Position numbers and translations under genes: made by a program
Origin: Candidatus Pelearchaeum maunauluense
GTDB lineage: Archaea > Thermoproteota > Nitrososphaeria_A > Caldarchaeales > Caldarchaeaceae
DNA length: 64,000 nt
Direction: 5' to 3'
NCBI GenBank assembly: GCA_030059675.1
Contig: JANVYQ010000002.1
Coordinates: 96,001-160,000 of the forward strand
Notes under the pieces: model-generated
Databases searched by the model: none
What the model was told of the DNA's origin: nothing
Seen by the model: only the letters and a program-made list of their open reading frames with translations
Shown here: positions 4,652 through 36,731 of the stretch, in pieces
Layout: each line of letters starts with the position of its first letter
How positions within the stretch are numbered: the stretch's first letter is position 1

Positions 4652-4711
4652 AAGGTCAGAGTGAGCTGGTTCTCTTCACCCAAATCCGAATGAGACAGAC
4701 TCATCATTCCA
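4652..4711 (-). ncRNA. C/D-box guide sRNA (dual guide, 23S rRNA domain V)
   Basis: Minus strand: ATGATGA (C)-GTCTGTCTCATT-CGGA (D')-GGTGAAGA (C')-GAACCAGCTCACT-CTGA (D). Confidence 0.8.
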
Positions 4712-4830
4712 GAGAACAAACAACCACAAGGCAGTAAATTAACGTTAATGCTGAAGCCCCGCGCAGGCCCTTAAACCATAAAACGGGTGTTCAGCTCTGG
4801 AATAGCCTTGTTATCGTTTTCTTCGCTCCC

Positions 4831-6296
4831 CTATATGCTGCCATGCTTATAGCCGCTCCTATGGCGGTTGTTATTAGTGTGGCTGCTTGTATTGGGAGCC
4901 ATTCTGGCTTTAGGGCTGCGTATACGTATAGCGGCGTCGCGGTTGCTGCAAGAGCCGGCCGCGGCTGTTATCATGGTTAGGAACATTCCGAGGGGTCTTA
5001 TGAAGCGCGCCCGCGGCGTTGTTGTGAAGTCTGGAAAACGGGAGCTGAAGTAGGTTCCTATCATCACGGTCTCAACCAGCGCTGTATAGCCTGCCACCAC
5101 CAGAGCCAGCGCAGAACCCCAGCTGGACACGACGGCTGGGATGGTTGCCGCCAGGATGAGCGCCATCGCTGGGGACGCAACTATAATCGTGGTGGCGGCC
5201 TTAGCTCTCACAATCTCACCTGGCCTTAGGGGGCTATGAGGAGGTTTAGGAACGACTCGCCCTCGCGGCCTATGGATGTTGCGGAGAGAAGTAATGCGAA
5301 GAGGAGCAGCCCCACGGTAGGCTGGAGGTAGAGAGCTAGCCTAGCCCTAGACGCTGTGAGGAACGGGATTATCGCCACCGCCGCTGGCACGGCTATAAAC
5401 GCGGCCATCTCACGCCGCCGAAGAAACGACTTAAGCTCCTTCCTGATTATAGCCGAATCACCTGGCGTGAAGCCCAGCTTCGTGAATATACTCGGCTTAG
5501 GCGTGTAGGATTTGCTTGTTATCCTTATCTCAGTCTCATGCACAGCCCAGTATCGTGTCCTAAGAGCCGTGCCGATGAGGAATCCTGAGAAGGCAAAGAG
5601 CGCTCCCAGGAATGTGAAGAGCATGCCACCAGCCAGGTCGGCCTCAAAATACCTTTCTATAGCTATTGAGAGCCATACAGGCGGTATGAACCAAACCAGG
5701 CCAACTATATCCATAATCCATTCAAGAGAGCTTATGAGGACTTGGAAGTTGAACATAACGACGAAGATGAAGATTACCATCGTGTTGAATAGCGTGGCCA
5801 GCGGTAGCGCGAGCCTCCCTTTCCGCCTGTAGATTCGCCTCGCCGCCCTAGAGGTTATGGAGAGTATTATCTCCACGATGAAGCTTCCCGCAGCCAGCGC
5901 TATTCCGAGGGCTGCGCCGAGAATTATGGAGAGGAGAGGCAGCACCGAGTAGGCAGAGGAGAGGGAGGACGCCACCACATACTCGGCTGGCGTTATGGGA
6001 AGCCAGTTAACGGCGTCGACCGAGGGTGTGTTGATGCTGCGGTTAATCTCAAACATTATCGTATAGACTACTGAGAGGAACATCAGAAGGAGCGGGAGCG
6101 CTACCAAGAGCTGGTATAAGGATTGCTGCGGCGGAGACTGGGAGGTTGCGCCTTATGTGGCTAGGGAGGAGCCTATGAAGAGGGTTATTGATAGCCTTAG
6201 GTTTAGACGCAGCCCCCTACCCAGTAGGCGCCTTACAAGGCTCTGGGACGAGGATGCTCTCAAAGAGGATAGTGCGAGAATCTGCGCAAGCCTCAT
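4831..6296 (-). pseudogene. ABC-type exporter permease, fragmented
   Basis: Hydrophobic ORF pieces 5226-6107 and 4831-5211 plus an upstream fragment; IIRKELKSFLR and GREG motifs; broken by stops/frameshifts. Confidence 0.7.
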
Positions 6297-8954: not shown

Positions 8955-10194
8955 CCCTCACCAACCTCTCCACGACGCGCTGGACGCCAGTCCCATACTG
9001 GAGAGCCGACTTCCTGGAGCGCGCGACCTCATCAAGCCCCAGCAGAAGAGCGACGCTCCTTAGAATACGCTTCCTCACGTAGCCCTCAGCCGTCTTAGCT
9101 ACCTTCAGCTCAGGTGGTAAGCTCAGGGCGTAATCCACCAGCTCATAATCCAAGTAAGGCAAGACCAGCTCAACCCCAACAAGGGAGCATGCGAGGACAT
9201 CGCGGGGCAGGCTAAAGGCGTGGAGGCCCATGACATCCTGCCACAACGCCTCCTGCACGGCTTCATGACCATACCTCTCGGCTATCTTCTCGTATTTCAT
9301 GTAGCCGCCGAACAGCTCGTCAGCCCCTTGGCCCGCTACGGCAGACCTAGCGCCCAGCTCTCTGGCGCGCTCAGCCTGGAGCAGAAAGACAGAGCCTATC
9401 GCAGCGTCCATCAGCGACAACCTGCCAAAAACCCCGCGGAGGAGCTCAACAGCCCGCGAAACATCGCTGGGGGATATCTCAACATGCGTTGCCTCAATCC
9501 CCAGCAGCTTGGCGACGCTCTTGATGTTCGCCCAATCCCGCGCGCCAGGGAGGCCTGCTGATACTAGCATGGGCTCAAGCCCAGCCTCTGCGCAGAGCTT
9601 GGCTAGGATGGAGCTGTCCAAGCCGCCTGAGAAGAAGAGCGCAGAGCCGCGCTCAACGTAGCGCTCAACCGAGGAGCGGAGTAGGCCGAGTATCCTACCC
9701 GCATCCCCCTTCACATGACGCCGCGACGGCTTCCAATAAGTCTCCACAACAGAGCCATGTTCGCCCAGCCGCGTTATGCACGCTGGCCGCGCTGGAGTCG
9801 GTTCATACCCAGCGTTGATGATGAACGCAGGAGTGTTGCTGCAAATTATGAGGCCGCGCGTCTCCGCTATGAAGAGCGGCCTACACCCAAGGTGGTCGCG
9901 GACGAGCACAAGCCCCTCGCCGCTTACCATGACCGCGGAGAAGAAGCCACGCAGCCCCCTGGCGTCCTCTACAGAACCAACCCCGAAGGCGGGGTATGCA
10001 TCTACAAGCGTCAGCCTCCCGTCGCTATACTCGGCAGCCTTCACCCCACGCTCCCGCCGCACCATCCCGAAGTATGCCGCAGCCGCCTGTCCCTGGGAGT
10101 AGTACTCAGCTTCCCTGCCCGCTTCTCCCAAAGCCCTCTTAACCGCCTCCCCCGCGCCCCTGCCGTAGGCAGCCACGAAGCCGAACACAAGCAA
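8932..10194 (-). CDS. Asparagine synthetase B-related protein
   Basis: RDHLGCRPLF, FSGGLDSS, GQGADELFGGY. Confidence 0.8.
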   Translation of the reverse strand: MLVFGFVAAYGRGAGEAVKRALGEAGREAEYYSQGQAAAAYFGMVRRERGVKAAEYSDGRLTLVDAYPAFGVGSVEDARGLRGFFSAVMVSGEGLVLVRDHLGCRPLFIAETRGLIICSNTPAFIINAGYEPTPARPACITRLGEHGSVVETYWKPSRRHVKGDAGRILGLLRSSVERYVERGSALFFSGGLDSSILAKLCAEAGLEPMLVSAGLPGARDWANIKSVAKLLGIEATHVEISPSDVSRAVELLRGVFGRLSLMDAAIGSVFLLQAERARELGARSAVAGQGADELFGGYMKYEKIAERYGHEAVQEALWQDVMGLHAFSLPRDVLACSLVGVELVLPYLDYELVDYALSLPPELKVAKTAEGYVRKRILRSVALLLGLDEVARSRKSALQYGTGVQRVVERLVRDGKARLS

Positions 10195-25866: not shown

Positions 25867-26439
25867 ATGGTGAAGAAGAAAGTCAAGAAGAAGGCGGCAC
25901 GCAAGGCTGCGCGCAAACCAGAGGCAGAGTTCCCCAAGAAGCACAGGATAGAGGTTGAGGTTAACGGCGTAAAATACACGCATGAGGTCGAGCCGCGCCT
26001 CCTCCTAGTCCACTATATCCGCGACGTGCTGGGCCTGACTGGCACGCATATAGGCTGCGACACGACACACTGCGGTGCTTGCACGGTCTTGATGGATTGG
26101 GATGACGGCCGATGGAAGGCGATAAAGTCATGCACGATGTTCGCAGTCCAGGCTAATGGTAGGAGGATACTCACGATAGAGGGGCTCGCCAAGGGTGATG
26201 AGCTGCACCCGCTCCAGAAAGCATTCTGGGAGCATCACGGATTGCAGTGCGGCTACTGCACACCTGGAATGATAATGTCCGCCCTAGGCTACCTCATGAT
26301 AAACCCCAACCCCAGCGAGATGGATGTCCGTAAGGGAATATCAGGAAACCTATGCAGATGCACAGGATACCAGAACATAGTCAAAGCAATACTAGCAGCG
26401 GCAGAGGAAATAAGGAGCAGCGGCAAGCCAATACTATAA
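25867..26439 (+). CDS. coxS: Mo-hydroxylase/CODH [2Fe-2S] small subunit
   Basis: [29 protein letters not shown]. Confidence 0.92.
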
Positions 26440-26454
26440 CTGGTGAACGAATAA

Positions 26455-26910
26455 ATGCACTTTGAGGACAAGTTTGAGGTCCAAGCACCCGTAGAGACTG
26501 TCTGGAACTTCATAACAAGCCCCAAAGACTTCGCAAAAATAATACCAGACCTCCAGAAGTTTGAGATAATAGACAAGCGGCAGTTCAAGGCAGCCTTCAA
26601 AGTAGGGCTAGGCATGATTAAGGGTACGATAAACATGACATTCAAGTTCGAGGACATGGAGCCCATGACTAGGGTGAAGGTCGTCGGCCGCGGCTCTGGG
26701 CTACAAAGCACAGCAGACCTAACAATAGACCTAAACCTCCAACCCAGCAACGAAAAGACGCTCATAGCATGGAGCGCAGACCTAAACGTAGGCGGAATGG
26801 TAGCAAGCGTAGGAGCACGCCTCCTAGAATCAACAACAAAAAACAAAGTCAAAGAAATAGTAGAGGGAATAAAGAAAGCAATAGAGAAGAAACCAGGAAA
26901 AAAGAGATAA
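26455..26910 (+). CDS. coxG: CoxG (SRPBCC) protein
   Basis: APVETVWNF...GMVASVGARLL. Confidence 0.85.
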   Translation: MHFEDKFEVQAPVETVWNFITSPKDFAKIIPDLQKFEIIDKRQFKAAFKVGLGMIKGTINMTFKFEDMEPMTRVKVVGRGSGLQSTADLTIDLNLQPSNEKTLIAWSADLNVGGMVASVGARLLESTTKNKVKEIVEGIKKAIEKKPGKKR

Positions 26911-26956
26911 CAGAATACCCCTAGGCTTACTCCTACTCCTCAAAGACTACAGTTAT

Positions 26957-27572
26957 TCATTTATATGTCCTCTCGTTAGGACACCAATACCTCCCGTAAT
27001 GGGCTATATACTGCATGACAGCACCACAAGTGGGACAGACAGCGCTCCCAGCTATGGGAGAACCCCTCGAACCACTAGTGGCTTGCTGATACATCACAAC
27101 TAGCTGGCTGTATACCTCGTGAGTGATTTCGCCGCCATCCACATCTTTTGGTATGAAGCAAAACCTCCTATTTTTCCCATACTCATCCACGAATAGTAGA
27201 TCAATAGCTTCTTTCCCCAACCATAGAAAACTTCCTCCCCAGATTCTTGTTATAGACAACTCACTAACACGTTGGTAGGGTACAGTATAGTCCTTAAGTT
27301 TTTCTTAAATTCTTTACCAAAAGAGAATAAAAATAATATGGGCGCTAGGATTAAAGATAATACTAGAGAAGGGAGTAATAAAGGAAATAATACTGTAATT
27401 AACATGAAAGACAACACAACGATAAAAATAGGTAGAATAATCTTAGCAGACATCTCAGGAACTCTCAATAGACATATTGAGAGTCATACGCAAAGTAGCC
27501 ATGTGCACCGCCGCCCATCCCATAAGGACTTCCTTCTTTAAAGAACGCCCGTCGCCAGCTAAGAGCTGACAT
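26957..27572 (-). pseudogene. Membrane protein with C-terminal Zn-ribbon, frameshifted
   Basis: Fragments from ATG 27572 (stops ~27465), 27250-27468 (TM) and 26957-27259 (CPTC...WCPNE). Confidence 0.5.
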
Positions 27573-27786
27573 GGTTAAGATAATCTTGGGAAAATATTAT
27601 GACTTTTAAGCTTTTAAGGCTAAAAGCCCCAACAAACGACAATATAAAACCCGCCTTGGAAAAATTATTGTAGGATTTAAAATGACCAAAACCCTGAGAA
27701 GAATAACAAACTCATTAAAGAAACGCTTATGGACGCTATTACTTCACGTACTACTAACGAATAATAGCGATTAATGTCACTTATGT

Positions 27787-28307
27787 TTGATGGATAGGAG
27801 AATCAAGCTGGTTGATTATAACGCTCTATGGCCAGAGATGTACAGGGAGGAGAAGAGAAGAATCATGGAAAAGGTAGGACACCTGATAGTTGATGTGGAA
27901 CATATAGGAAGCACAGCAATCCCAGGGATGAAAGCAAAGCCGATAATTGATATAATGATAGCTGTCAAAGACCTAAACATAGCTGACGAGTGTATAACGC
28001 TACTCCAAGAGCTTGGCTACGAATACGTGCCTGAACCAGACTTCCCAGAAAGATGTTTCATGCGCAAAGGCTCCCCCGAAAACAGAACACACCACATATC
28101 CATAGTCAAGCACATGGGACATTCTGGATAGAGCACCTACTCTTCAGAGACTACCTTCGTAAAAACCCCGATGAACGCTTACGATACTCTGCATTGAACG
28201 AAACGCTAGCAACAAAACACAGCTCAAACCGTCGCGCATACACCTTCGCCAAAACAGAATACATCAAAGAAGTAATAGCAGAGGCACGACTAACATCATC
28301 AAAATAA
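27787..28307 (+). pseudogene. GrpB/UPF0157 nucleotidyltransferase-like protein, frameshifted
   Basis: EHIGSTAIPG, AKPIIDI in one frame; HLLFRDYLR...YTFAK in another; apparent CA duplication at ~28111-28114. Confidence 0.8.
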
Positions 28308-28511
28308 GAGCCTAAAGATATCTCACACCTCCTCTATATAAGGGTTAGGGAAGGAAACTACGCATATAGCGAAGAGGTAAACGAGAACGTAGTAATAGAC
28401 CTAGACAACGAAGGCAAAATACTAGCCATAGAAATACTAGACGCATCCTCAACACTAGGCAAAGAATCCCTAGAAAAGACACTAAAAGCAGAAGGAGCAG
28501 TAATAAGATGA
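28308..28511 (+). pseudogene. DUF2283-like antitoxin, 5'-truncated
   Basis: LYIRVREG...SEEVNENVVIDLDNEGKILAIEILDAS*; no start codon after in-frame TAA 28305-28307. Confidence 0.65.
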
Positions 28512-28573
28512 GATATCCACTATCTCATGTGGAATGATAGAATATTTGGATTAGAGAATATTACTAAGCTAGC

Positions 28574-28786
28574 TTACGTTACTACGGATTCTTTCTTGGC
28601 TAGTGCTTCTACCATTAGGGGTATTATTTTGCTGGCCCTCAATATCTCGATGAAGAGTGGTTTCCCATCCTTGCTAAAATGGATTACTAGGTCTCCAGCC
28701 TCTTCCGCGTGGGAGTGCTCTCCATCCTCCGAGATAATTAAGGATAATACGTCGGCTTCCTCGTCATAAGACATCTTATACTCCAT
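28574..28786 (-). CDS. DUF2283-like putative antitoxin
   Basis: YDEEADVL...GKPLFIEILRAS. Confidence 0.8.
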   Translation of the reverse strand: MEYKMSYDEEADVLSLIISEDGEHSHAEEAGDLVIHFSKDGKPLFIEILRASKIIPLMVEALAKKESVVT

Positions 28787-28885
28787 ATCTACTTCTTCTC
28801 ACAGGATAGTAATGTTATGACAAGTAGATAACCATTCGCTCCTCATAAACAACACGAAGAGCATACTTCTCATTAACAGGCCTAG
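28776..28885 (-). pseudogene. DUF4258-like toxin C-terminal remnant
   Basis: Across frames: RPVNEKYALRVVYEE / LLVIT / YPVRRSRYGV*, overlapping the DUF2283 start. Confidence 0.5.
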
Positions 28886-28945
28886 AGCTAAGTATTGAGA
28901 GCCTGGAGTTGATGAAAGATTTTACATCTAAGTCTTTATTTCACT

Positions 28946-29245
28946 CTAGGTTTTAGCCTGTGCTTCCACTAGCTTTGCTAATGCGCTCCATAGCGGCTTC
29001 ATATCCTCCCTAAAGCTCCTTATCTCTGTTGTTAGCGTGTCAAGGCGCTTGTTCATCTCCTCAAATCCCCGCCTCACGGCCTCTTCTGTCCTAGAAGCTC
29101 TGGCCCTTAAGTCATAGAGAAGTAAAAGCGTTAAGTCCTGAGCCGTAAGCCTTCTCTTCCCAGCCCTCTCCAACAACTCCCTAACACCCTTCTCGATAAT
29201 GGCATCAACAGCTGCTGAGGCAGCTTTCTCAACCATCCTAAACAA
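28946..29245 (-). CDS. Small coiled-coil protein (paREP15-like)
   Basis: LTAQDLTLLLL followed by RLD-type coiled coil. Confidence 0.55.
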   Translation of the reverse strand: MFRMVEKAASAAVDAIIEKGVRELLERAGKRRLTAQDLTLLLLYDLRARASRTEEAVRRGFEEMNKRLDTLTTEIRSFREDMKPLWSALAKLVEAQAKT

Positions 29246-29286
29246 TAGTTAAGACCGAGATATATAAACATCCCTAAAGGAAAGGT

Positions 29287-30242
29287 CTACGATATCCTCA
29301 GTCTTGGTGGGTAGCTTGATGGCATTGTCCATGTTTCTCCTTAGCTAGTCAGGTCAATCTGGAGAAATAGCCCCCTAAAAGTTCCTCCGCTGCGCTGGTT
29401 TGGGATGAAGGTCAGGGTTATGTGCGCTCTTCTCCCCTCTGGAACGTTTATGGTTACAGTTTTGACTATGTAGTCCTCGTCTGCTCCAAGAGCTATGTCC
29501 CTCCTTATCCTGATAGTTATCTCGCCTGATAGGTCGCCGCCTTCGGCCCTGATGAATATATGCACCTCAACCCTCTCACCCACCCTAGACTGGCTAATTC
29601 TCAAACCGTCCTTGGCGAAGTATACATCCTCCACTACTGGTATTCCACGCCTAGGTGGTTCTACGTATAGGCGCGGCGGATAGGAGTCTGGCATAGAATA
29701 TATCTTTGCTCCGTTAACATAGACTTCCACGTGATACCCTCTAACAGAGTCTCCACTAGGTAGCTGAGGCGTGAAACTAAGCGTAAGCTCCCAGCCTCCC
29801 TAGCTGCTAGGCTCGCGGTAAAACTAGCCCTTCTAACCTCCACCTCGGGCGACAACGCTATGTCCTGCTTAATCACGACATCTATTTTTCCTGAGAATTC
29901 GCCTCCTACAGCTGTAATCAGAACGTGTGCAGTGACTGGGCTTCCTACCTTCACGCTGGTAACTTGCCTACCATCACTAGACCACCAGACATTAACTATT
30001 GAGAGCCTGCCTTTGGCTGGCATTTGTAAAGCAAGCCTTGGCGGATATCCCTCCTGCTCCCAGACCTCGCCGTTGCTCAAAGTAACCCTCAGGAAGTATC
30101 CCCTAACGGAGCTTGATGGCCTATAGGTGAGGCAGAATCGCTGGCTTAATGAGCCGTATCCCTCATAGGTTGCTACCGTCCTATCAGCCCCCAGCCTAAC
30201 ATCTTCCCTAACCTCGACTACGAAGCTAGTGGCTGGCTCCAC
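29287..30242 (-). pseudogene. Repeat-domain (probably extracellular) protein, 5'-truncated and frameshifted
   Basis: Three repeats containing D(I/V)xL(G/S)xx and ending YPPRL, spread over three frames. Confidence 0.6.
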
Positions 30243-30561
30243 GCTCCGTGAAGTAGAGGTTGATGAAGATGAGCTTGATGAATACTGCCCGTCATGCGCC
30301 TCAAGGCTATACGAACTGAATGAGGGTAAGGTATGCGGTAGATGTAGCGTAGTCTATAAGCTTAGAAAAGCTGAGAAGGTCTATGAGGCTTGGAGACTCC
30401 ACATACCGAAGACAGAGCTTGAGAAATCTCCTCTGCTACTCGTTGTTCTTGAGAATTTTCCCTACTTCGTTCCAGCTAGATTTAGTGTAGAGGTAGAGGG
30501 TCATAGCTGCTCTATCTACAGGATAGATGAATCTGGAAGGGAATGGACGAGGACGAGATAA
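30229..30561 (+). CDS. Hypothetical Zn-finger-containing fragment, probably 5'-truncated
   Basis: CPSC...CGRC; abuts an opposite-strand fragment head-to-head. Confidence 0.45.
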   Translation: MAGSTLREVEVDEDELDEYCPSCASRLYELNEGKVCGRCSVVYKLRKAEKVYEAWRLHIPKTELEKSPLLLVVLENFPYFVPARFSVEVEGHSCSIYRIDESGREWTRTR

Positions 30562-31158
30562 TTGATAGGATCGCAACGAATTGTAAGAGACGTTAACATA
30601 GGTGTAATTCCCGTGCTTACAGCCGTAAGGTATGGCTACGACCCAAGGGCGAACGAATACAGATACATAGAGAGAACTGCGAGAATAATATCAAACATAC
30701 TTAGGAACCCGTCATTATTGAGGAAGAGCGATTTACGATTAGTCGCAGTAGTCTCTAAATCTGTGCTATCAAAGAATACTGCCGAGACATTCTTAGAGAT
30801 GCTTGACGAAGAAGGCATAGAATATAGCACGTATAGCTACGTAATAGATGAGGGGAACGTAGTTAGAAGGTTAATAGATGTTGGTCTAGACCATAAAGAC
30901 GCAACCCTACTCATAGACCTAGTTAAAGCATTCCCAATAATCATAGACAGATTAAGGCGTAGCGATAGAGCATCACCTGAGAGAATTAGAGACTCCTTAA
31001 GGCAGGAGCTTGGAGAAGAATATGACTTCATGGCTGATATATACTCCGAAGCACTAAGGTTAGGTAGAAGATTAACAATAAAGGAGGCCAAGAGAAGGGC
31101 GAATATGAATAAAGCCTTCAGCCTAGACATACTCAAGTCCCTAAAAATAATAGAATAG
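30562..31158 (+). CDS. Hypothetical protein
   Basis: 198-aa ORF directly following the previous stop codon. Confidence 0.6.
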   Translation: MIGSQRIVRDVNIGVIPVLTAVRYGYDPRANEYRYIERTARIISNILRNPSLLRKSDLRLVAVVSKSVLSKNTAETFLEMLDEEGIEYSTYSYVIDEGNVVRRLIDVGLDHKDATLLIDLVKAFPIIIDRLRRSDRASPERIRDSLRQELGEEYDFMADIYSEALRLGRRLTIKEAKRRANMNKAFSLDILKSLKIIE

Positions 31159-31427
31159 GATTGATATAACGGAGTTTCTTAAAGAGATTACTTTTAAGAC
31201 ATTTTTATTCCATCGGAATCGAGTTTAGTTTTTTCTTCAATATATGCTTCATAACATCTAATACTGAGATAATTAAGAAATGGTTAAAGCATGACGAACA
31301 TGAAGTGATAATGTGGTTAGGTTTGTTAAGGATAATTGAAGACGTCCGTGAATAACCAAAAATGTGGACAGCCCATTAAATTAAAACTCGACAACTAGCG
31401 GGTTAAGGTCTTGCTCGTGTAGTCATG

Positions 31428-32825
31428 TCATTTCTCTAGGTGGGATGCCCATTGATTAAACAACTCGTGAAGTCTTATTCGTCTAGTTTCTTTGTATTCG
31501 TCAGAATACTGGATTTTGTTGAGCCTCCTAGCATAGCTTTTAATATTTTCTACTGAGATGTTAGGGAAAAGGAACTTGGATAATTCAAATAATTTATCTA
31601 AATCATCGGAACAACCAGAAGCACTAACAGACCTAGAAACAAATAGCCATCCTTTTTCTATGAGCAACTCTATGGCGTACCAATCTTCTCCATAAATCTT
31701 AAAATGAACCAAAATCAACCATAGAGCTGGGTCAACTTCGGGAAAAAGGTGTAGTGTAATATCATTCAGAGCTTCATCAAAAGCATTTTGTGAACCTAAC
31801 CTTTGGCGAGCAAACTTTAGGTATTCGTTCCATGCTACGTTAGAAATAAGGTTTTTATTTTCCAAGTTTTGTTTCGTTATCTTCCATTCATTTGGGAAGA
31901 CAACCCAAACGTTGTAATCTAGAGGAGCGCATTTAAAGAGTTCTTCAAAGAAGAGAGAGAATAAATGTTTCAGATAATTCTCGTCGGATTTTTTATCGTC
32001 TGCGTGTTGTCTCATTTTGGCCATTAGTAGCGACGCGCGTGAGTTGTTTTTAATTATGTGTGATGTGAGTTGCTTGAAGATCTCGTCTATCTGATCATGA
32101 AACAATCCCCACCACCCCCGAGGATCTAGCGTGTCATAAGCGTTATTGAGTAGTTGTCTTTCACATTGCCAAGCTTTGTAGTGCCAATTGAAAACTTTTG
32201 TGATTAAATCGCCTGAGAGAAGAAGATTCGATCTGTTGGATATGTATTTATTGAAATGGTGTAGCATGTCATAGGCTATTCTCAGCTTCTTAGAATCATT
32301 TTCAAGCTTTTCATCAATATTTTGGGCAAAAATAGAGAACAGCTCTTTCTCAAATTTAAAACTCGGCGCCTCACTTTGCCATACTGCCCTCCAAACATCC
32401 ACTATTTCATTTTCCCTTTTTAGCCCTTTTAGGAATTGAAGTCTGAATTCAGAGGTTGAACCCTTGACCCATTTATAGACGTTCTACATCGTTTTATACA
32501 AATAAACAAGTCCCACAACCATAGGGATCAACAGAATTACTCGGAAGACAGGAGGAATAAAGACCCAAACCAGATTAGTAAAAAACGCTAGTGATACAAA
32601 CAATAGGAAGCGTGGATAATTAATTATGTAGTCTATTATTACACGTAAGTCCAGCTCCGCATATCCCTCTGTTTCTCTGTTCTTTTTCCGATATATTTCC
32701 TCAAAAACAGCAATAGCGAATGGTACAAGGACGACTAGAAGGGCAGTGAGCCAAGCTGTAAATATAGTGTGAAACTCTGTTGTCCCAAGATCTTCAAGGA
32801 ACTTTATTGCAGCTTCAACCATCAA
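31428..32825 (-). pseudogene. AT-rich membrane-anchored hypothetical protein interrupted by one in-frame TAG
   Basis: ORFs 32484-32825 and 31428-32402 are in frame: ...LYKTM*NVYKWVKG...ENEIVDVWRAVW. Confidence 0.65.
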
Positions 32826-32976
32826 TAACGGTGGTATTTGCTCTTACTTAAGTTTATCTTGGGCTAACCTATTACCTACGTTGTCAATTAGTTAGCCATG
32901 TGTCGATTTTTATTCTAATGTTTGTGCTAAATTAGGGAAAACTCATTCAAAATCTTTGAAAATAATAGACTAACCA

Positions 32977-33174
32977 CTATGAGGCCGATTTCAAGGCTCT
33001 CTTAAACTCATCTATATGACTCTTAAGATATTCCTCTATAGCCTCAGTTAGTGCTTGTTGCTCGGTCTTGCCCGTAGCCGAGCAGAACATCTTGAACCGC
33101 TTCCTAAGCGACTCAGGAACCCTACCCGACAACAATACGAGCCTTTCCTCTCCTCTACCCCTCTGCCTCGGCAT
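32977..33174 (-). CDS. Ribbon-helix-helix (CopG/ParG-like) protein
   Basis: LSGRVPESLRKRFK...TEQQALTEAIEEYL. Confidence 0.75.
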   Translation of the reverse strand: MPRQRGRGEERLVLLSGRVPESLRKRFKMFCSATGKTEQQALTEAIEEYLKSHIDEFKRALKSAS

Positions 33175-33184
33175 ACCATACAAT

Positions 33185-33196
33185 CATACATGTATG
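33185..33196. promoter_or_regulatory. Palindromic operator candidate
   Basis: Perfect palindrome CATACATGTATG between a TTATAT box and the RHH start codon. Confidence 0.5.
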
Positions 33197-33364
33197 CAAG
33201 ATATAACGTTGACCGATACTAATGCTTTCACGAAAACAAACGCCTTGCTTCATGTAATCCTTATGTTATAAGGGTAGCCCAGCCCAACACCCATTAATAT
33301 AGCAGACGCCCACTCCCCCTAAACATTAATTTAAATATACCTTGCTTGGACAATCTCTGAGACG

Positions 33365-35551
33365 ATGGGCCGAGTAAAGAAAATCTCAGAAGTCATAGAC
33401 ATACTAAGGCAGAAGGAGCAGATACGGAATATTGGGATAATCGCCCATGTAGACCACGGAAAAACGACGACTACGGACAGCCTTCTAGCCGCCGCTGGAC
33501 TTCTAAGCCCCCAGCTAGCAGGCAGAGCATTAGCCCTAGACTACTTGGAGGAAGAGCAGCAGAGACAAATGACGATTAAAGCCGCTAACATTAGCTTATA
33601 CTACGAAATGAACGGTAAGCCGTATGTCATCAACATGATAGACACCCCGGGGCATGTTGATTTTTCTGGTCGTGTTACTCGTGCTTTGCGTGCTATTGAT
33701 GGTGCTGTTGTTGTGGTTGATGCTGTTGAGGGTGTTATGACGCAGACTGAGACTGTTATTCGTCAGGCTGTTGGTGAGCGTGTTAGGCCTGTTTTGTATA
33801 TTAATAAGATTGATCGTTTGATTAAGGAGCTTAGGCTTTCTCCTGATAAGGTTCAGGAGACTCTTGCTAGGATTGTTAGTGATGTTAATCGTTTGATTCA
33901 TATGTATGCTGAGCCGGAGTATCGTGATAAATGGAAGGTTAGTTTTGCTGATGGTACTGTTGCCATGGGGAGCGCGAAGGATAGGTGGGGGTTCACGGTC
34001 CAGCAGGCTCAGAGGAAGGGGATAAAGTTCGGCGATGTTCTCGATGCCTTTACTCGCGAAGATATTGACTGGCTTCGCGACTCTGTGCCTCTTCACGAGG
34101 CGTTGCTGGAGATGGTGATAAAGCACCATCCGCCGCCGCATGTTGCGCAGAGGTATCGTATTGAGAAGCTGTGGAAAGGTGACTTGGAGAGCGAAGTAGG
34201 CCAGGCTATGCTGAACTGCGACGAGAACGGGCCGGTTGTTATGGCTGTTACAGATGTCCGCGTGGATCCGCAGGCTGGTGTCGTGGCTACTGGAAGGCTC
34301 TTCAGCGGTACCGTTAGTGAGGGAGACACGATACTCCTAGTGGGCAGGAACATCAAGAGTAGGGTCCAGCAGGTCTGCGTCTACATGGGGCCGAGCCGCG
34401 AGCTTGTTGGGAGGCTGCCGGCGGGTAATATACCGGCTCTGCTGGGGATAGAGGAAGCCCGCGCAGGGGATACGATAGGAACCGTGGAGATGATTCCGTT
34501 CGAGTCGCTCAAATATGTGTCGGAGCCCGTGGTTACGATCTCGATTGAGCCGAAGCATAGCCGCGACCTGCCGAAGCTGATTGACTTCCTGAATAAGCTC
34601 ACGATAGAGGACCCAACACTAGTTACCACGGTCAGGCCCGAGACGGGGGAGTATCTAATCAGCGGTATGGGTACGCTCCACCTTGAGATTGCTCTTACCT
34701 GGATTCAGAAGGCTGGCCTGGAGGTTGTGGCGGGTAGGCCGATAATCCTCTACCGAGAGTCTATCCAGAAGGAGGGTAAGGTCTTTGAGGGCAAGTCGCC
34801 CAACAAGCATAACCGCATATACATTAAGGTTGAGCCGCTGGAGGAGGAGGTTATAGAGCTTATCAGGAAGGGTGAGCTCTTCGAGGAGATGGATAGGAAG
34901 CAGATAGCTAAGATACTCCGCGACCATGGGTGGGATGCTGACGAGGCTAGCAACGTCTGGACGATAGACCCGCGCGGCAATATTCTCGTAGACGCCACGA
35001 AGGGGGCGCAGTACCTGCATGAGACGAAGACGATGATTATCGGCGGCTTCCAGCGTGTTATGGGTGAGGGGCCGCTTGCTGGCGAGGCTATGCGCGGCGT
35101 GAAGGCTACGCTGGTGCAGGTGGAGCTGCACGAGGACCCAGTGCACCGCGGCTATGCGCAGATAGCCCCAGCTACTTGGAGAAGCCTCTACGCCAGCGTG
35201 TTGAGCGCAGACCCAATACTCTTGGAGCCTGTCCTGAAGATAGAGGCCAAGGTACCGCCAGACTTGATGGGCGCTGTGACCTCTACGATAAGCAGCAAGA
35301 GGGGCCGCGTGATAGATGTGAAGCAGTCCGAGTATATCACGGTTGTCACTGGCGAGATTCCCGCTGCCGAGACGTTTGACCTCAGCGAGGCTATGCGCAG
35401 CGCGACGATGGGCAAGGCGTTCTGGGCTACCGAGTTCAGCCAGTGGAGGCCCGTGCCAGCCTCGATAAGGGATAAGGTGATTCAGGAGATAAGGAAGAGG
35501 AAGGGTATGCAGCTGGAGGTTCCGACGATATCGCAGTTCGTCGAGGATTAG
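33365..35551 (+). CDS. fusA: Translation elongation factor EF-2
   Basis: AHVDHGKTT, DTPGHVDF, NKIDR, diphthamide loop HEDPVHRG. Confidence 0.98.
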   Translation: MGRVKKISEVIDILRQKEQIRNIGIIAHVDHGKTTTTDSLLAAAGLLSPQLAGRALALDYLEEEQQRQMTIKAANISLYYEMNGKPYVINMIDTPGHVDFSGRVTRALRAIDGAVVVVDAVEGVMTQTETVIRQAVGERVRPVLYINKIDRLIKELRLSPDKVQETLARIVSDVNRLIHMYAEPEYRDKWKVSFADGTVAMGSAKDRWGFTVQQAQRKGIKFGDVLDAFTREDIDWLRDSVPLHEALLEMVIKHHPPPHVAQRYRIEKLWKGDLESEVGQAMLNCDENGPVVMAVTDVRVDPQAGVVATGRLFSGTVSEGDTILLVGRNIKSRVQQVCVYMGPSRELVGRLPAGNIPALLGIEEARAGDTIGTVEMIPFESLKYVSEPVVTISIEPKHSRDLPKLIDFLNKLTIEDPTLVTTVRPETGEYLISGMGTLHLEIALTWIQKAGLEVVAGRPIILYRESIQKEGKVFEGKSPNKHNRIYIKVEPLEEEVIELIRKGELFEEMDRKQIAKILRDHGWDADEASNVWTIDPRGNILVDATKGAQYLHETKTMIIGGFQRVMGEGPLAGEAMRGVKATLVQVELHEDPVHRGYAQIAPATWRSLYASVLSADPILLEPVLKIEAKVPPDLMGAVTSTISSKRGRVIDVKQSEYITVVTGEIPAAETFDLSEAMRSATMGKAFWATEFSQWRPVPASIRDKVIQEIRKRKGMQLEVPTISQFVED

Positions 35552-35880
35552 GAATAGACGAGTGTTATTAGTTGTATCATTACGAGGGCGCCCATAGCTA
35601 TTACAGCCTGCTCTAAGGCTGTTCCAATCTTCCCTTTTATCGACCTCCTTATTATTAGCGCGAGTCCTGCTGTGGAGTGGATTATGGCTAGGCCGCCCGC
35701 TAGTAGGGGTAGCTCCTGGGCGTGGAGGAGGCTGCACATGCTATACGTATCCAGCAGGCCGAAGCTCAGCCTGCGGACAAGCTCAACCCTATTTAGACAG
35801 AATCCTGACAGCATCATCAGGTAGGCTGCAAACACTAGGGGGAGCGAGGTAAGCTCCGTCAATAAGAGATAAATCCTCAT
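35548..35880 (-). CDS. Small 3-TM membrane protein with two His (possible heme b binding)
   Basis: LSGF...LLH...IIH pattern. Confidence 0.6.
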   Translation of the reverse strand: MRIYLLLTELTSLPLVFAAYLMMLSGFCLNRVELVRRLSFGLLDTYSMCSLLHAQELPLLAGGLAIIHSTAGLALIIRRSIKGKIGTALEQAVIAMGALVMIQLITLVYS

Positions 35881-35909
35881 CCCAGCAGTATAGCATGTGC
35901 GCAAGGGCT

Positions 35910-36731
35910 ATGAAGTTTCCCAGGAGGTCTCTGCTTGGGATGCTTATCCTAGCCCCAGCGGTTAGGCTCATCCTCTCATCGTTGGGGCTTGCGGCGCTTG
36001 CTTCATGGCTTTGGCTCAGGGTTGAGACGCTGGCCCAGCCTAGCCAGCCCAGCTATAGGCGTGGAGCCCGCGTTCAGCTGCCCATGCCAGAGCTGAGCGG
36101 TGTAATCGCGTTGGAGCAAGCGTTGGCGAGCAGGCGCTCAATCCGCGAATATAGGTCAGAGCCAATAACTCTACGGGAACTTGGGCAGCTTCTCTGGTCT
36201 GCTTACGGGATAACCGAGACACGGTGGGGGTTTAAGACCATGCCGAGCGCGGGAGCTACTTATCCGCTGGAGATATACGCGGTTGTCCGTGATGTGGAGG
36301 GGCTTGAGCCAGGTGCCTACCGCTACCTACCGCACAGCCACGAGCTTGAGCAGACCCGCGCGGGGGAGCTAAACCAAGAGCTATACGGCGCAGCCCTAGA
36401 GCAAGAGTGGGTTCTAAACGCCCAGCTCAACCTAGTGATTACAGCGGTCTATAGCAGGACTACGCGGCGATACGGTGAAAGGGGTGTGCGCTACGTCTTC
36501 ATGGAGGCAGGCCACGCTTGCCAGAACGTCTATCTCCAGGCAACAGCGCTTGGGTTGGGGGCTGTGGCTATAGGGGCGTTTAATGATGATGAGGTAGCGC
36601 GTATAGTTGGGGCGGGAGAGGAGGAGCACACTATATACATGATAGCGGTGGGCAGGCCTGTAAAACAATATCGGATAACGTTGGAGGAGATTTCCTCCTA
36701 CTACGCGGCTAGACGCTTGACTTCTTCGTGA
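35910..36731 (+). CDS. SagB/ThcOx-family nitroreductase-like flavoprotein with N-terminal twin-Arg/TM segment
   Basis: RRSIR, PSAGATYPLE, EAGHACQN; N-terminal PRRSLL. Confidence 0.85.
   Translation: MKFPRRSLLGMLILAPAVRLILSSLGLAALASWLWLRVETLAQPSQPSYRRGARVQLPMPELSGVIALEQALASRRSIREYRSEPITLRELGQLLWSAYGITETRWGFKTMPSAGATYPLEIYAVVRDVEGLEPGAYRYLPHSHELEQTRAGELNQELYGAALEQEWVLNAQLNLVITAVYSRTTRRYGERGVRYVFMEAGHACQNVYLQATALGLGAVAIGAFNDDEVARIVGAGEEEHTIYMIAVGRPVKQYRITLEEISSYYAARRLTSS

Follow-up and report, generated by a model that had tools for sequence, protein, structure and literature searches.

The window analysed here is a 64,000-nucleotide stretch of the hot-spring archaeon Candidatus Pelearchaeum maunauluense, a member of the Caldarchaeales (Aigarchaeota) (contig JANVYQ010000002.1, positions 96,001 to 160,000). 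Our subject is a run of 105 codons in its fusA gene, which encodes archaeal elongation factor 2 (EF-2), that end almost exclusively in T or G, together with a complementary run at the end of the neighbouring gene coxG and a low-GC island lying between the two genes. The 728-residue open reading frame (ORF) is 78-96% identical to EF-2 from metagenome-assembled genomes (MAGs) of Caldarchaeales, and the EF-2 Pfam domain set is present on the matching database proteins; the product is canonical EF-2, as a first-pass annotation made from the sequence alone had read it. Loci of relatives carry L-numbers (L001, L057 and so on), positions without such a prefix refer to the window's own sequence, and K3, M3, T3 and A3 denote the fractions of codons ending in G or T, in A or C, in T and in A, respectively. 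The features discussed are as follows.

26680 to 26907, + strand: mirror tract, the last 76 codons of coxG (26455-26910), A-maximised and almost entirely A/C-ending (from codon counts)
26911 to 33323, no strand: 6.4-kb low-GC island (GC 0.36-0.49) between coxG and fusA (from L006 synteny and the GC profile)
32977 to 33183, - strand: ribbon-helix-helix (RHH) gene at the right end of the island (Pfam 56B_RHH, 1e-6)
33121 to 33646, + strand: apparently exchangeable 5' module, about 240 nucleotides (nt) upstream plus fusA codons 1-94, K3 0.38 (from trees, approximately unbiased (AU) tests and upstream homology)
33365 to 35551, + strand: fusA, archaeal EF-2, 728 residues, a mosaic gene (from ORF and translation)
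33647 to 33961, + strand: T/G-ending tract, fusA codons 95-199, T-maximised (from third-base counts, skew and shuffling)
33962 to 34219, + strand: fusA codons 200-285, of discordant ancestry in the window and T/G-rich in L001 (from four-fold differences)

Complementary third-base tracts in fusA and coxG

A recount of fusA codons 95-199 (33647-33961, in frame) gave third bases A1 C0 G29 T75, which makes 104 G/T-ending codons of 105, with a single AAA as the exception and no C-ending codon, exactly as the first-pass annotation had it. The corresponding counts are A29 C29 G24 T12 in codons 1-94 and A47 C141 G236 T106 (T3 = 0.20) in codons 200-728. The onset falls on the Pro/Gly codons of the DTPGH motif, and the abrupt switch at this motif after an A/C-rich 5' end, likewise described earlier, is borne out by these counts. 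The tract also forms the keto-skew maximum of the 64 kb, reaching +0.38 per 300-nt window (mean -0.014, standard deviation (sd) 0.093), with an abrupt jump between +0.49 at 33650-33799 and -0.19 in the neighbouring 150-nt bin. None of 20,000 synonymous-codon shuffles of fusA attained the observed segment score of 99; the top shuffle reached 39.

The rule followed by the tract is T at every synonymous opportunity, and G otherwise. Its four-fold sites count T36 G5 A0 C0, compared with G75 T51 C47 A16 in codons 200-728, so that four-fold G is depleted (5/41 versus 75/189), and its two-fold pyrimidine sites are T17 C0 as against C44 T29. All seven Ile codons are ATT (ATA 21, ATT 12 and ATC 8 in codons 200-728), and Arg is written as CGT 8 and AGG 3, where the remainder uses AGG 16, CGC 13, CGT 2, CGA 1 and AGA 1. 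Two-fold purine sites, at G14 A1, are the same as in codons 200-728 (G93 A5); the G-ending Glu, Lys and Gln codons are thus normal throughout fusA and not specific to the tract. Such usage does not characterise any whole gene of the window (T3 0.05-0.39 across 78 ORFs), and the presumably well-expressed genes for L37ae, proteasome alpha and prefoldin are ordinary (T3 = 0.14-0.19). Inside the tract, a search for tandem structure returned one weak 9-nt array only. An antisense ORF at 33596..34141 was considered as a gene and rejected as a by-product: it is in register with the fusA codons, its product is of low complexity, and G/T third bases in that register forbid stops, which makes a long antisense ORF automatic.

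Over its last 76 codons coxG complements the fusA tract, with A preferred and C in second place. The four-fold sites there are A19 C7 G2 T0, which read on the - strand become T19 G7 C2 A0 and so resemble those of fusA on the + strand. All five Ile codons are ATA, two-fold pyrimidine sites count C7 T0, and two-fold purine sites count A11 G6, compared with A4 G15 over the gene's first half. This tract has the top A3 of 16,356 windows of 76 codons in the 64 kb. In coxG codons 83-151, M3 is 0.87 and A3 0.61, compared with 0.36-0.63 and 0.09-0.29 in 14 orthologues, and the protein is evenly 63% identical to that of L006 over its whole length. The polarity therefore flips across the interval between the genes, the + strand being A/C-rich at 26680-26907 and G/T-rich at 33647-33961, and the strand enriched in T, in fusA as in coxG, has its 3' end directed away from the coxG-fusA junction.

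Island, mosaic gene structure and relatives

In 14 relatives coxG lies directly upstream of fusA, with a gap of 59-141 nt, and these loci, which keep both flanks, hold no counterpart of the island. The alignment of L006 to the window stops at 26875, at the end of coxG, and resumes at 33324; homology with L006 and L013 ceases at the coxG stop codon. The right edge of the island accordingly lies at about 33323 by L006 synteny, roughly 41 nt upstream of the fusA start codon and about 323 nt from the tract onset, which agrees with the earlier estimate of about 300 bp. The island carries mostly ORFans, plus GrpB, DUF2283 and RHH genes. Among its ORFs, 13 searched against Pfam and 12 against PHROGs, NCBIfam and PADLOC, no integrase, recombinase, replication initiator or defence gene was found, and Atlas look-ups of two ORFans gave no usable lead. 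No att-like direct repeat of the island borders is among the nine short two-copy repeat families seen, which are at chance level, and tblastn and blastn found no displaced or second fusA piece in the window. A replication origin in the island was also considered and is without support: the window has no Orc1/Cdc6 gene, and no repeat set was seen.

Two observations concern the island genes themselves. GrpB is seemingly split: the ORF at 27787-28131 covers only profile positions 2-102 of 159, and an ORF at 28053-28307, overlapping it in another frame, resembles the missing C-terminal part, so that 27787-28307 is probably one frameshifted gene. The two adjacent, overlapping ORFs at 29341-30242 (- strand; 129 and 193 residues) are paralogues with 32-33% identity by tblastn and match no family.

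In L030 (Terraquivivens tikiterensis) the site upstream of fusA holds other low-GC DNA, at least 10 kb of it. The part at L030:6100-9900 looks mobile, with transposase-like ORFs and paired small ORFs resembling toxin-antitoxin genes, as read from translations, and contains a DUF2283 homologue (one tblastn match). An ORF at L030:9732..9869 (- strand) is a truncated homologue of the window's RHH gene in the same place; the N-terminal residues are common to both and the DNA aligns. Indeed, the window and L030 have in common, at 72-74% identity, a stretch of roughly 240 nt ahead of fusA that takes in the beginning of the RHH gene, implying that island-side DNA accompanies the 5' end of fusA when it moves. 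Some 30-40 nt before the fusA start lies a TATA-like box (AATTTAAATA, part of a block of 14 nt at 33326-33339), which is identical in the window, L030, L043 and L006 despite differing flanks.

Trees were built for fusA codons 1-127 and 131-727 from 27 sequences (full-length genes that were stop-free or had an insert removed). In the first tree the window is sister to L030 (100/98), both next to L043, and the remaining Terraquivivens make up a separate clade; in the second, L030 joins its congeners (100/100) and the window falls with the Caldarchaeaceae/HR01 group (100/99). Codons 1-94 alone again make the window and L030 sisters (96/88). AU tests rejected the congruent groupings of the two segments (p = 0.0056, 9.5e-5 and 0.0004); the first of these values, and p = 0.0088 for codons 1-94 alone, belong to the grouping of L030 with its congeners. 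The groups were named after the trees had been seen, and these p values are therefore optimistic. The ancestry switch in L030 lies at codons ~127 to 131. Recombination anchored in fusA, which the first-pass annotation had proposed, thus finds support in the disagreement of the segment trees, and judging from the compared sequences the fusA 5' end has been exchanged between families with its upstream DNA. The companion proposal, that the island supplies this 5' end, holds in part: the 5' end does appear to travel with upstream DNA, but the present island stops about 41 nt before the start codon.

A second discordance follows the tract. For codons 200-285 the four-fold differences are 16/28 between the window and L001 and 11/28 between L001 and L057, the reverse of codons 286-728 (73/210 and 116/181), and identity between the window and L001 is 80% in the first 300 nt and ~92% further downstream. 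Codons 200-285 of the window look replaced, and we take the sharp boundary at 33961 to be a recombination junction. L001 and L057, the two nearest relatives, both have contigs that end inside the 5' third of fusA.

The distribution of the tract was followed in 58 relatives, eight of 66 loci having been set aside for stops in straight translation. L057, with an EF-2 89% identical to the window's and a contig starting at codon 40, has a tract with the same onset codon (K3 0.85, T3 0.51), nearly pure over codons 97-151, with 16/105 G/T endings lost. L001, 92% identical to the window in DNA over 11.6 kb, starts at window position 33956 and has 79/86 G/T-ending codons at its contig start (codons 198-283). 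L030 carries a fragment, codons 101-113 being common with the window; over codons 101-110 it matches 29/30 nt, including three CGT codons where congeners use AGG or AGA. The tract is absent from the fusA genes of the 55 other relatives, whose highest K3 is 0.74. The window and L057 differ at 114/181 four-fold sites (63%) in codons 286-728 and at 5/33 in codons 95-151, and within the core 33667-33819 they share identical runs of 45, 39 and 47 nt, interrupted in L057 by a 19-nt patch with seven differences. As its presence in L057, L001 and L030 shows, the tract is old, inherited or transferred, and not, as had been supposed at first, a scar of the present island. A rough calculation based on divergence at four-fold sites indicates that L057 and L001 have lost about as many G/T endings as a pure tract would lose by neutral decay; the window's tract, with one exception in 105, is purer than such decay would leave it, which suggests that the process is still active or was lately renewed in this lineage.

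Two further observations were made in the fusA genes of other genera. In Wolframiiraptor (L002, L003 and L005) a weaker bias sits at a different place of the same gene, codons 1-94 having T3 0.34-0.38 and K3 0.71-0.77 with T3 0.13-0.18 downstream. In four Terraquivivens MAGs fusA carries a 31-33-nt insert right after codon 28 (L061, L062, L064:10085-10115 and L053 at ~9460-9492), where it separates the His codon from the Val codon of AHVDHGKT, the P-loop motif, and breaks the frame or brings in a stop codon. L030, of the same genus and with the imported 5' end, lacks it. The insert has a conserved 8-bp hairpin with a variable loop, adjoined by a GCCC/GGGG helix and a bulge of 3 nt, and its stems showed no covariation. 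From its predicted fold, it is a candidate spliced (bulge-helix-bulge-like) intron or bypassed element within an essential gene, and a keyword search of the open-access literature found no report of an intron of such kind in EF-2.

A proposed strand-asymmetric pressure and alternative explanations

The bias behaves as strand-specific mutational pressure rather than codon selection, and several observations support this part of the earlier proposal. In the fusA tract G/T is raised even at codon positions 1 and 2 (0.538 in the window and 0.548 in L057, compared with 0.505 +- 0.010 and a maximum of 0.524 in the 55 relatives), an excess of 3-4 sd that is confined to the tract and not seen in codons 286-728. 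Among the clade-specific replacements in the tract are two of E>D (GAR to GAT) and two of I>V. A translational reason is excluded because the two tracts favour opposite codons, and a test for translational selection did not find the same preferred codons in L37ae, proteasome alpha, prefoldin, fusA codons 200-728 or coxG. Across the 55 other relatives codons 95-151 show no synonymous constraint (mean pairwise difference 0.551, within the range of other segments); Rfam had no match on 26000-36500 or on a similar tract in L042, and the folding of both tract strands was not distinct from shuffles (z -1.73 and -0.68).

The mutational spectrum is not the one first proposed. C>T plus A>G, the deamination spectrum, cannot by itself yield T36:G5 at four-fold sites, because four-fold G has also been turned to T; G>T is required as well. 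A>G is not visible in fusA, where G-ending purine codons are the gene-wide norm and the two-fold G:A ratio is unchanged. Since 40 C residues survive at codon positions 1 and 2 of the tract, no single passage can have produced it; under purifying selection it must have taken many rounds or a local bias that is permanent, and one or a few damage events could not have saturated the tract and left the protein intact.

We propose, at about even odds, that a strand-asymmetric T-directed process acted with opposite polarity on both sides of a recombination and insertion hotspot, and that its product was later made mosaic by homologous recombination. The tract would then be the best-preserved remnant of a T-saturated fusA allele segment that once spanned at least codons 95-285. 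Long-lasting pressure would have driven each tolerated site of one strand to T, or to G where T was barred, non-synonymous changes being purged by selection on the protein, and its polarity would have been opposite across the coxG-fusA junction, on the + strand in fusA and on the - strand at the end of coxG. Starting from the observed tracts, their mirror symmetry, their distribution and the recombination around them, we infer three candidate geometries for the exposed strand: 3' tails of a resected linear fragment with the island between homology arms, lagging-strand templates of forks departing from the junction, or non-template strands of transcription departing from it. Reasoned from strand polarity, the pattern is opposite to that of resection at a chromosomal break between coxG and fusA. 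Single strands suffer cytosine deamination under heat, and purine loss or oxidation is copied as T; heat damage of exposed single strands, combining deamination with purine lesions read as T, would be the likely chemistry. Homologous recombination would reshuffle the region, turn over the island and move the fusA 5' end between families, leaving sharp tract edges.

Several findings weigh against this proposal. Saturating ~100 codons while keeping the protein needs very many cycles of damage and fixation or a permanent local bias. The 94 codons plus 41 nt between island and tract are not T-rich (K3 0.38), and the bias peaks at the inner edge of the tract, where simple end resection predicts the outer one. 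The fusA and coxG tracts are visible together in one genome only, the L057 and L001 contigs ending before coxG. The synonymous identity of the core between the window and L057 (0.84 over 51 codons) is only at the 99th percentile of 1638 pairs, which does not separate shared bias from recent exchange, so that shared bias alone may account for it. The edge at 33961 coincides with the L001 contig end and may mark either a population-level breakpoint or a risk of mis-assembly; the window itself may be a metagenomic assembly.

Similar tracts elsewhere in the order point the same way. A scan of ~1.23 Mb (the loci plus the window) gave the G/T class a heavy tail, with scores of 128, 99, 54 and 44, compared with at most 36 for the A/C, purine and pyrimidine classes. 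The DUF7388 gene at L046:14956-15645 has 213/230 G/T-ending codons (K3 0.88), and its homologue at L042:14828-15241 has K3 0.81, both in conserved synteny with no island nearby; in L042 the skew runs on into a 500-nt upstream non-coding spacer, and in the closer orthologue of L048 codon usage is normal (K3 0.57). A tract of comparable strength to that in fusA thus occurs beside no island, which counts against a link to the island. In L028 two divergent genes each have a G/T tract on the sense strand, at 4652-4831 (-) and 5172-5384 (+), and for these transcription alone would suffice as an explanation. On the L001 branch (L001:1-1593 versus window 33956-35548), fusA codons 401-728 show 10 C>T and no T>C, compared with a symmetric 59 C>T and 67 T>C in the 5 kb downstream; the excess runs along all of fusA and not into the downstream genes, which does not suit an island-centred process. 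A sense-strand, transcription-linked component may also exist in this order.

Shorter G/T-ending runs were seen at L035:16168-16350, L015:9270-9425, L003:8436-8537 and L002:9173-9253. Such short runs recur in several genera, within the 5' portion of an Mrp/ParA-like gene as well as in a gene for a small basic protein (named from their translations); in L028 these two genes are divergent neighbours, so that their runs mirror each other.

Transcription-associated asymmetry on its own is the alternative that survives best, though we consider it unlikely. Here the sense strand of a heavily transcribed gene, or of an R-loop zone, would gain T and G, the island would be irrelevant and the edges would stem from later recombination. 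fusA is expected to be highly expressed, and the L001 branch, the DUF7388 tracts with their upstream spacer and both divergent L028 genes suit this explanation, as does a slight 5' excess of K3 and T3, about +0.03, across 450 genes. However, the coxG sense strand is A/C-rich, which would require strong antisense transcription, and the promoter-proximal fusA codons 1-94 lean towards A/C in the window, L057 and L030. Moreover, the other presumably well-expressed genes of the window are normal, and the tract is missing in 55 relatives with the same gene and promoter box.

It is rather improbable that the tract was imported with foreign codon usage from an unsampled lineage or replicon that is T-rich at synonymous sites, for instance a single-stranded DNA (ssDNA) or rolling-circle element carrying a fusA fragment. 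The protein encoded by the tract is native, with L057 as its nearest relative (94%), as for the remaining gene; no second fusA fragment lies in the window, no island gene shares the bias, and the coxG mirror tract would be left unexplained. Searching the tract by blastn against phage and plasmid collections gave only bacterial fusA at ~70%, matches that reflect T-rich codons on a conserved protein. What import would explain are the sharp edges and the patchiness of the tract in three genomes (the 19-nt patch of L057 being an example), and the purity of the window's tract, which at 1/105 exceeds our estimate from L001-like decay since the split (7/86 non-G/T). ssDNA phages do show T-ending codons driven by C>T, according to PMC4032129.

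Selection on the nucleic acid itself, favouring a G/U-rich mRNA or A/C-rich template stretch for pausing, protein binding or blocking of recombination, seems to us comparably improbable. It would account for the identical onset codon in the window and L057, for a core (33667-33819) that stays highly identical between species with 63% four-fold difference elsewhere, and again for the purity of the window's tract. Opposite codons in the two tracts nevertheless share no common translational logic, neither a structure signal nor an Rfam family is present, and the 55 relatives do without the tract and show no synonymous constraint there. The loss of 16/105 endings in L057 is moreover about what neutral decay would give, as estimated from four-fold divergence.

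No better placed is the version of the first-pass annotation, a deamination scar of C>T and A>G left by repeated recombination of the present island, which would bring the 5' end of fusA with it. Both tracts have a polarity that would suit the 3' tails of an incoming fragment, and the 5' end of fusA has apparently been exchanged along with upstream DNA. Yet the spectrum requires G>T, the tract is older than the present island to judge from L057 and L030, the island edge lies upstream of fusA by synteny, and no integrase, att repeat or displaced fragment was found. An assembly artefact joining reads of different strains at 33647 and/or 33961 is very improbable: assemblers do break here (the L001 contig starts at most 5 nt from the tract end and that of L057 at codon 40), but the same 5' edge recurs in the independently assembled L057, part of the tract is in L030, and the coding frame and protein are intact.

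Known systems and implications

The proposed strand-asymmetric process has its closest likeness in DNA that spends time single-stranded. Vertebrate mitochondrial DNA carries a strand-asymmetric mutational skew of this origin, and in systems of this type the synonymous sites of one strand go to T (and G), amino-acid usage follows and opposite-strand genes show the inverse. Here, too, the bias is strongest at four-fold sites (fusA T36 G5 A0 C0; coxG A19 C7 G2 T0), non-synonymous positions are shifted in the fusA tract and the polarity inverts across the switch point. In contrast, only 315 nt plus 228 nt of a cellular chromosome are affected rather than a whole replicon arm, the effect is saturating and involves G>T as well as C>T, and it is mirrored across a 6.4-kb insertion and not a replicon; only the analogous tract of L042 extends into non-coding DNA. 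PMC4316638 describes extreme strand skews in organelle genomes, including the mitochondria of the thermoacidophile Galdieria.

Transcription-induced C>T on the non-transcribed strand is attributed to Beletskii and Bhagwat 1996 in PMC12999951, which also describes mutational skews as generally weak in archaea. The T/G excess on the fusA sense strand resembles it, for codons 95-199 only; unlike it, the tract of coxG is found on that gene's transcribed side, and the 94 promoter-proximal fusA codons are spared. Resected breaks and break-induced replication leave strand-coordinated (kataegis-like) mutation clusters, which are single somatic events with sparse mutations. These share with the present tracts the confinement to one strand, a strand switch at a defined point and, on the reading proposed here, damage to long single strands, whereas here we see an evolutionary end state filtered by selection, with the polarity of a resected incoming fragment and not of a chromosomal break. 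Flexible islands are exchanged by homologous recombination in conserved flanks, and e14 and phage 21 replace the end of their target gene icd. The likeness is a conserved gene beside a variable island that has become mosaic, its island-proximal end being of other ancestry; the differences are that integrase, att repeats and a displaced gene fragment were not found here, and that divergence there is ordinary synonymous divergence as opposed to one-directional saturation. A keyword search of open-access titles and abstract openings returned no description of saturating mirror-image synonymous tracts flanking an island.

A bolder form of the proposal, which we hold to be unlikely, is that the mirror tracts are the fixed single-stranded ends of a ~7.3-kb segment (26680-33961), island plus host-gene homology arms, that was repeatedly mobilised between Caldarchaeales lineages as a linear 3'-tailed intermediate. 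If true, this would be an unrecognised, integrase-free route of island transfer at high temperature with a damage signature in its arms.

EF-2 is a standard phylogenetic marker, yet its first third appears to have been exchanged between families here, which is a warning for phylogenies built on it. If the strand-asymmetric reading holds, the sequence by itself would tell which strand lay exposed when uncultured thermophilic archaea exchanged genes, and for how long a stretch, and it would become possible to test directly how islands turn over and what single-stranded DNA costs in mutations at high temperature.

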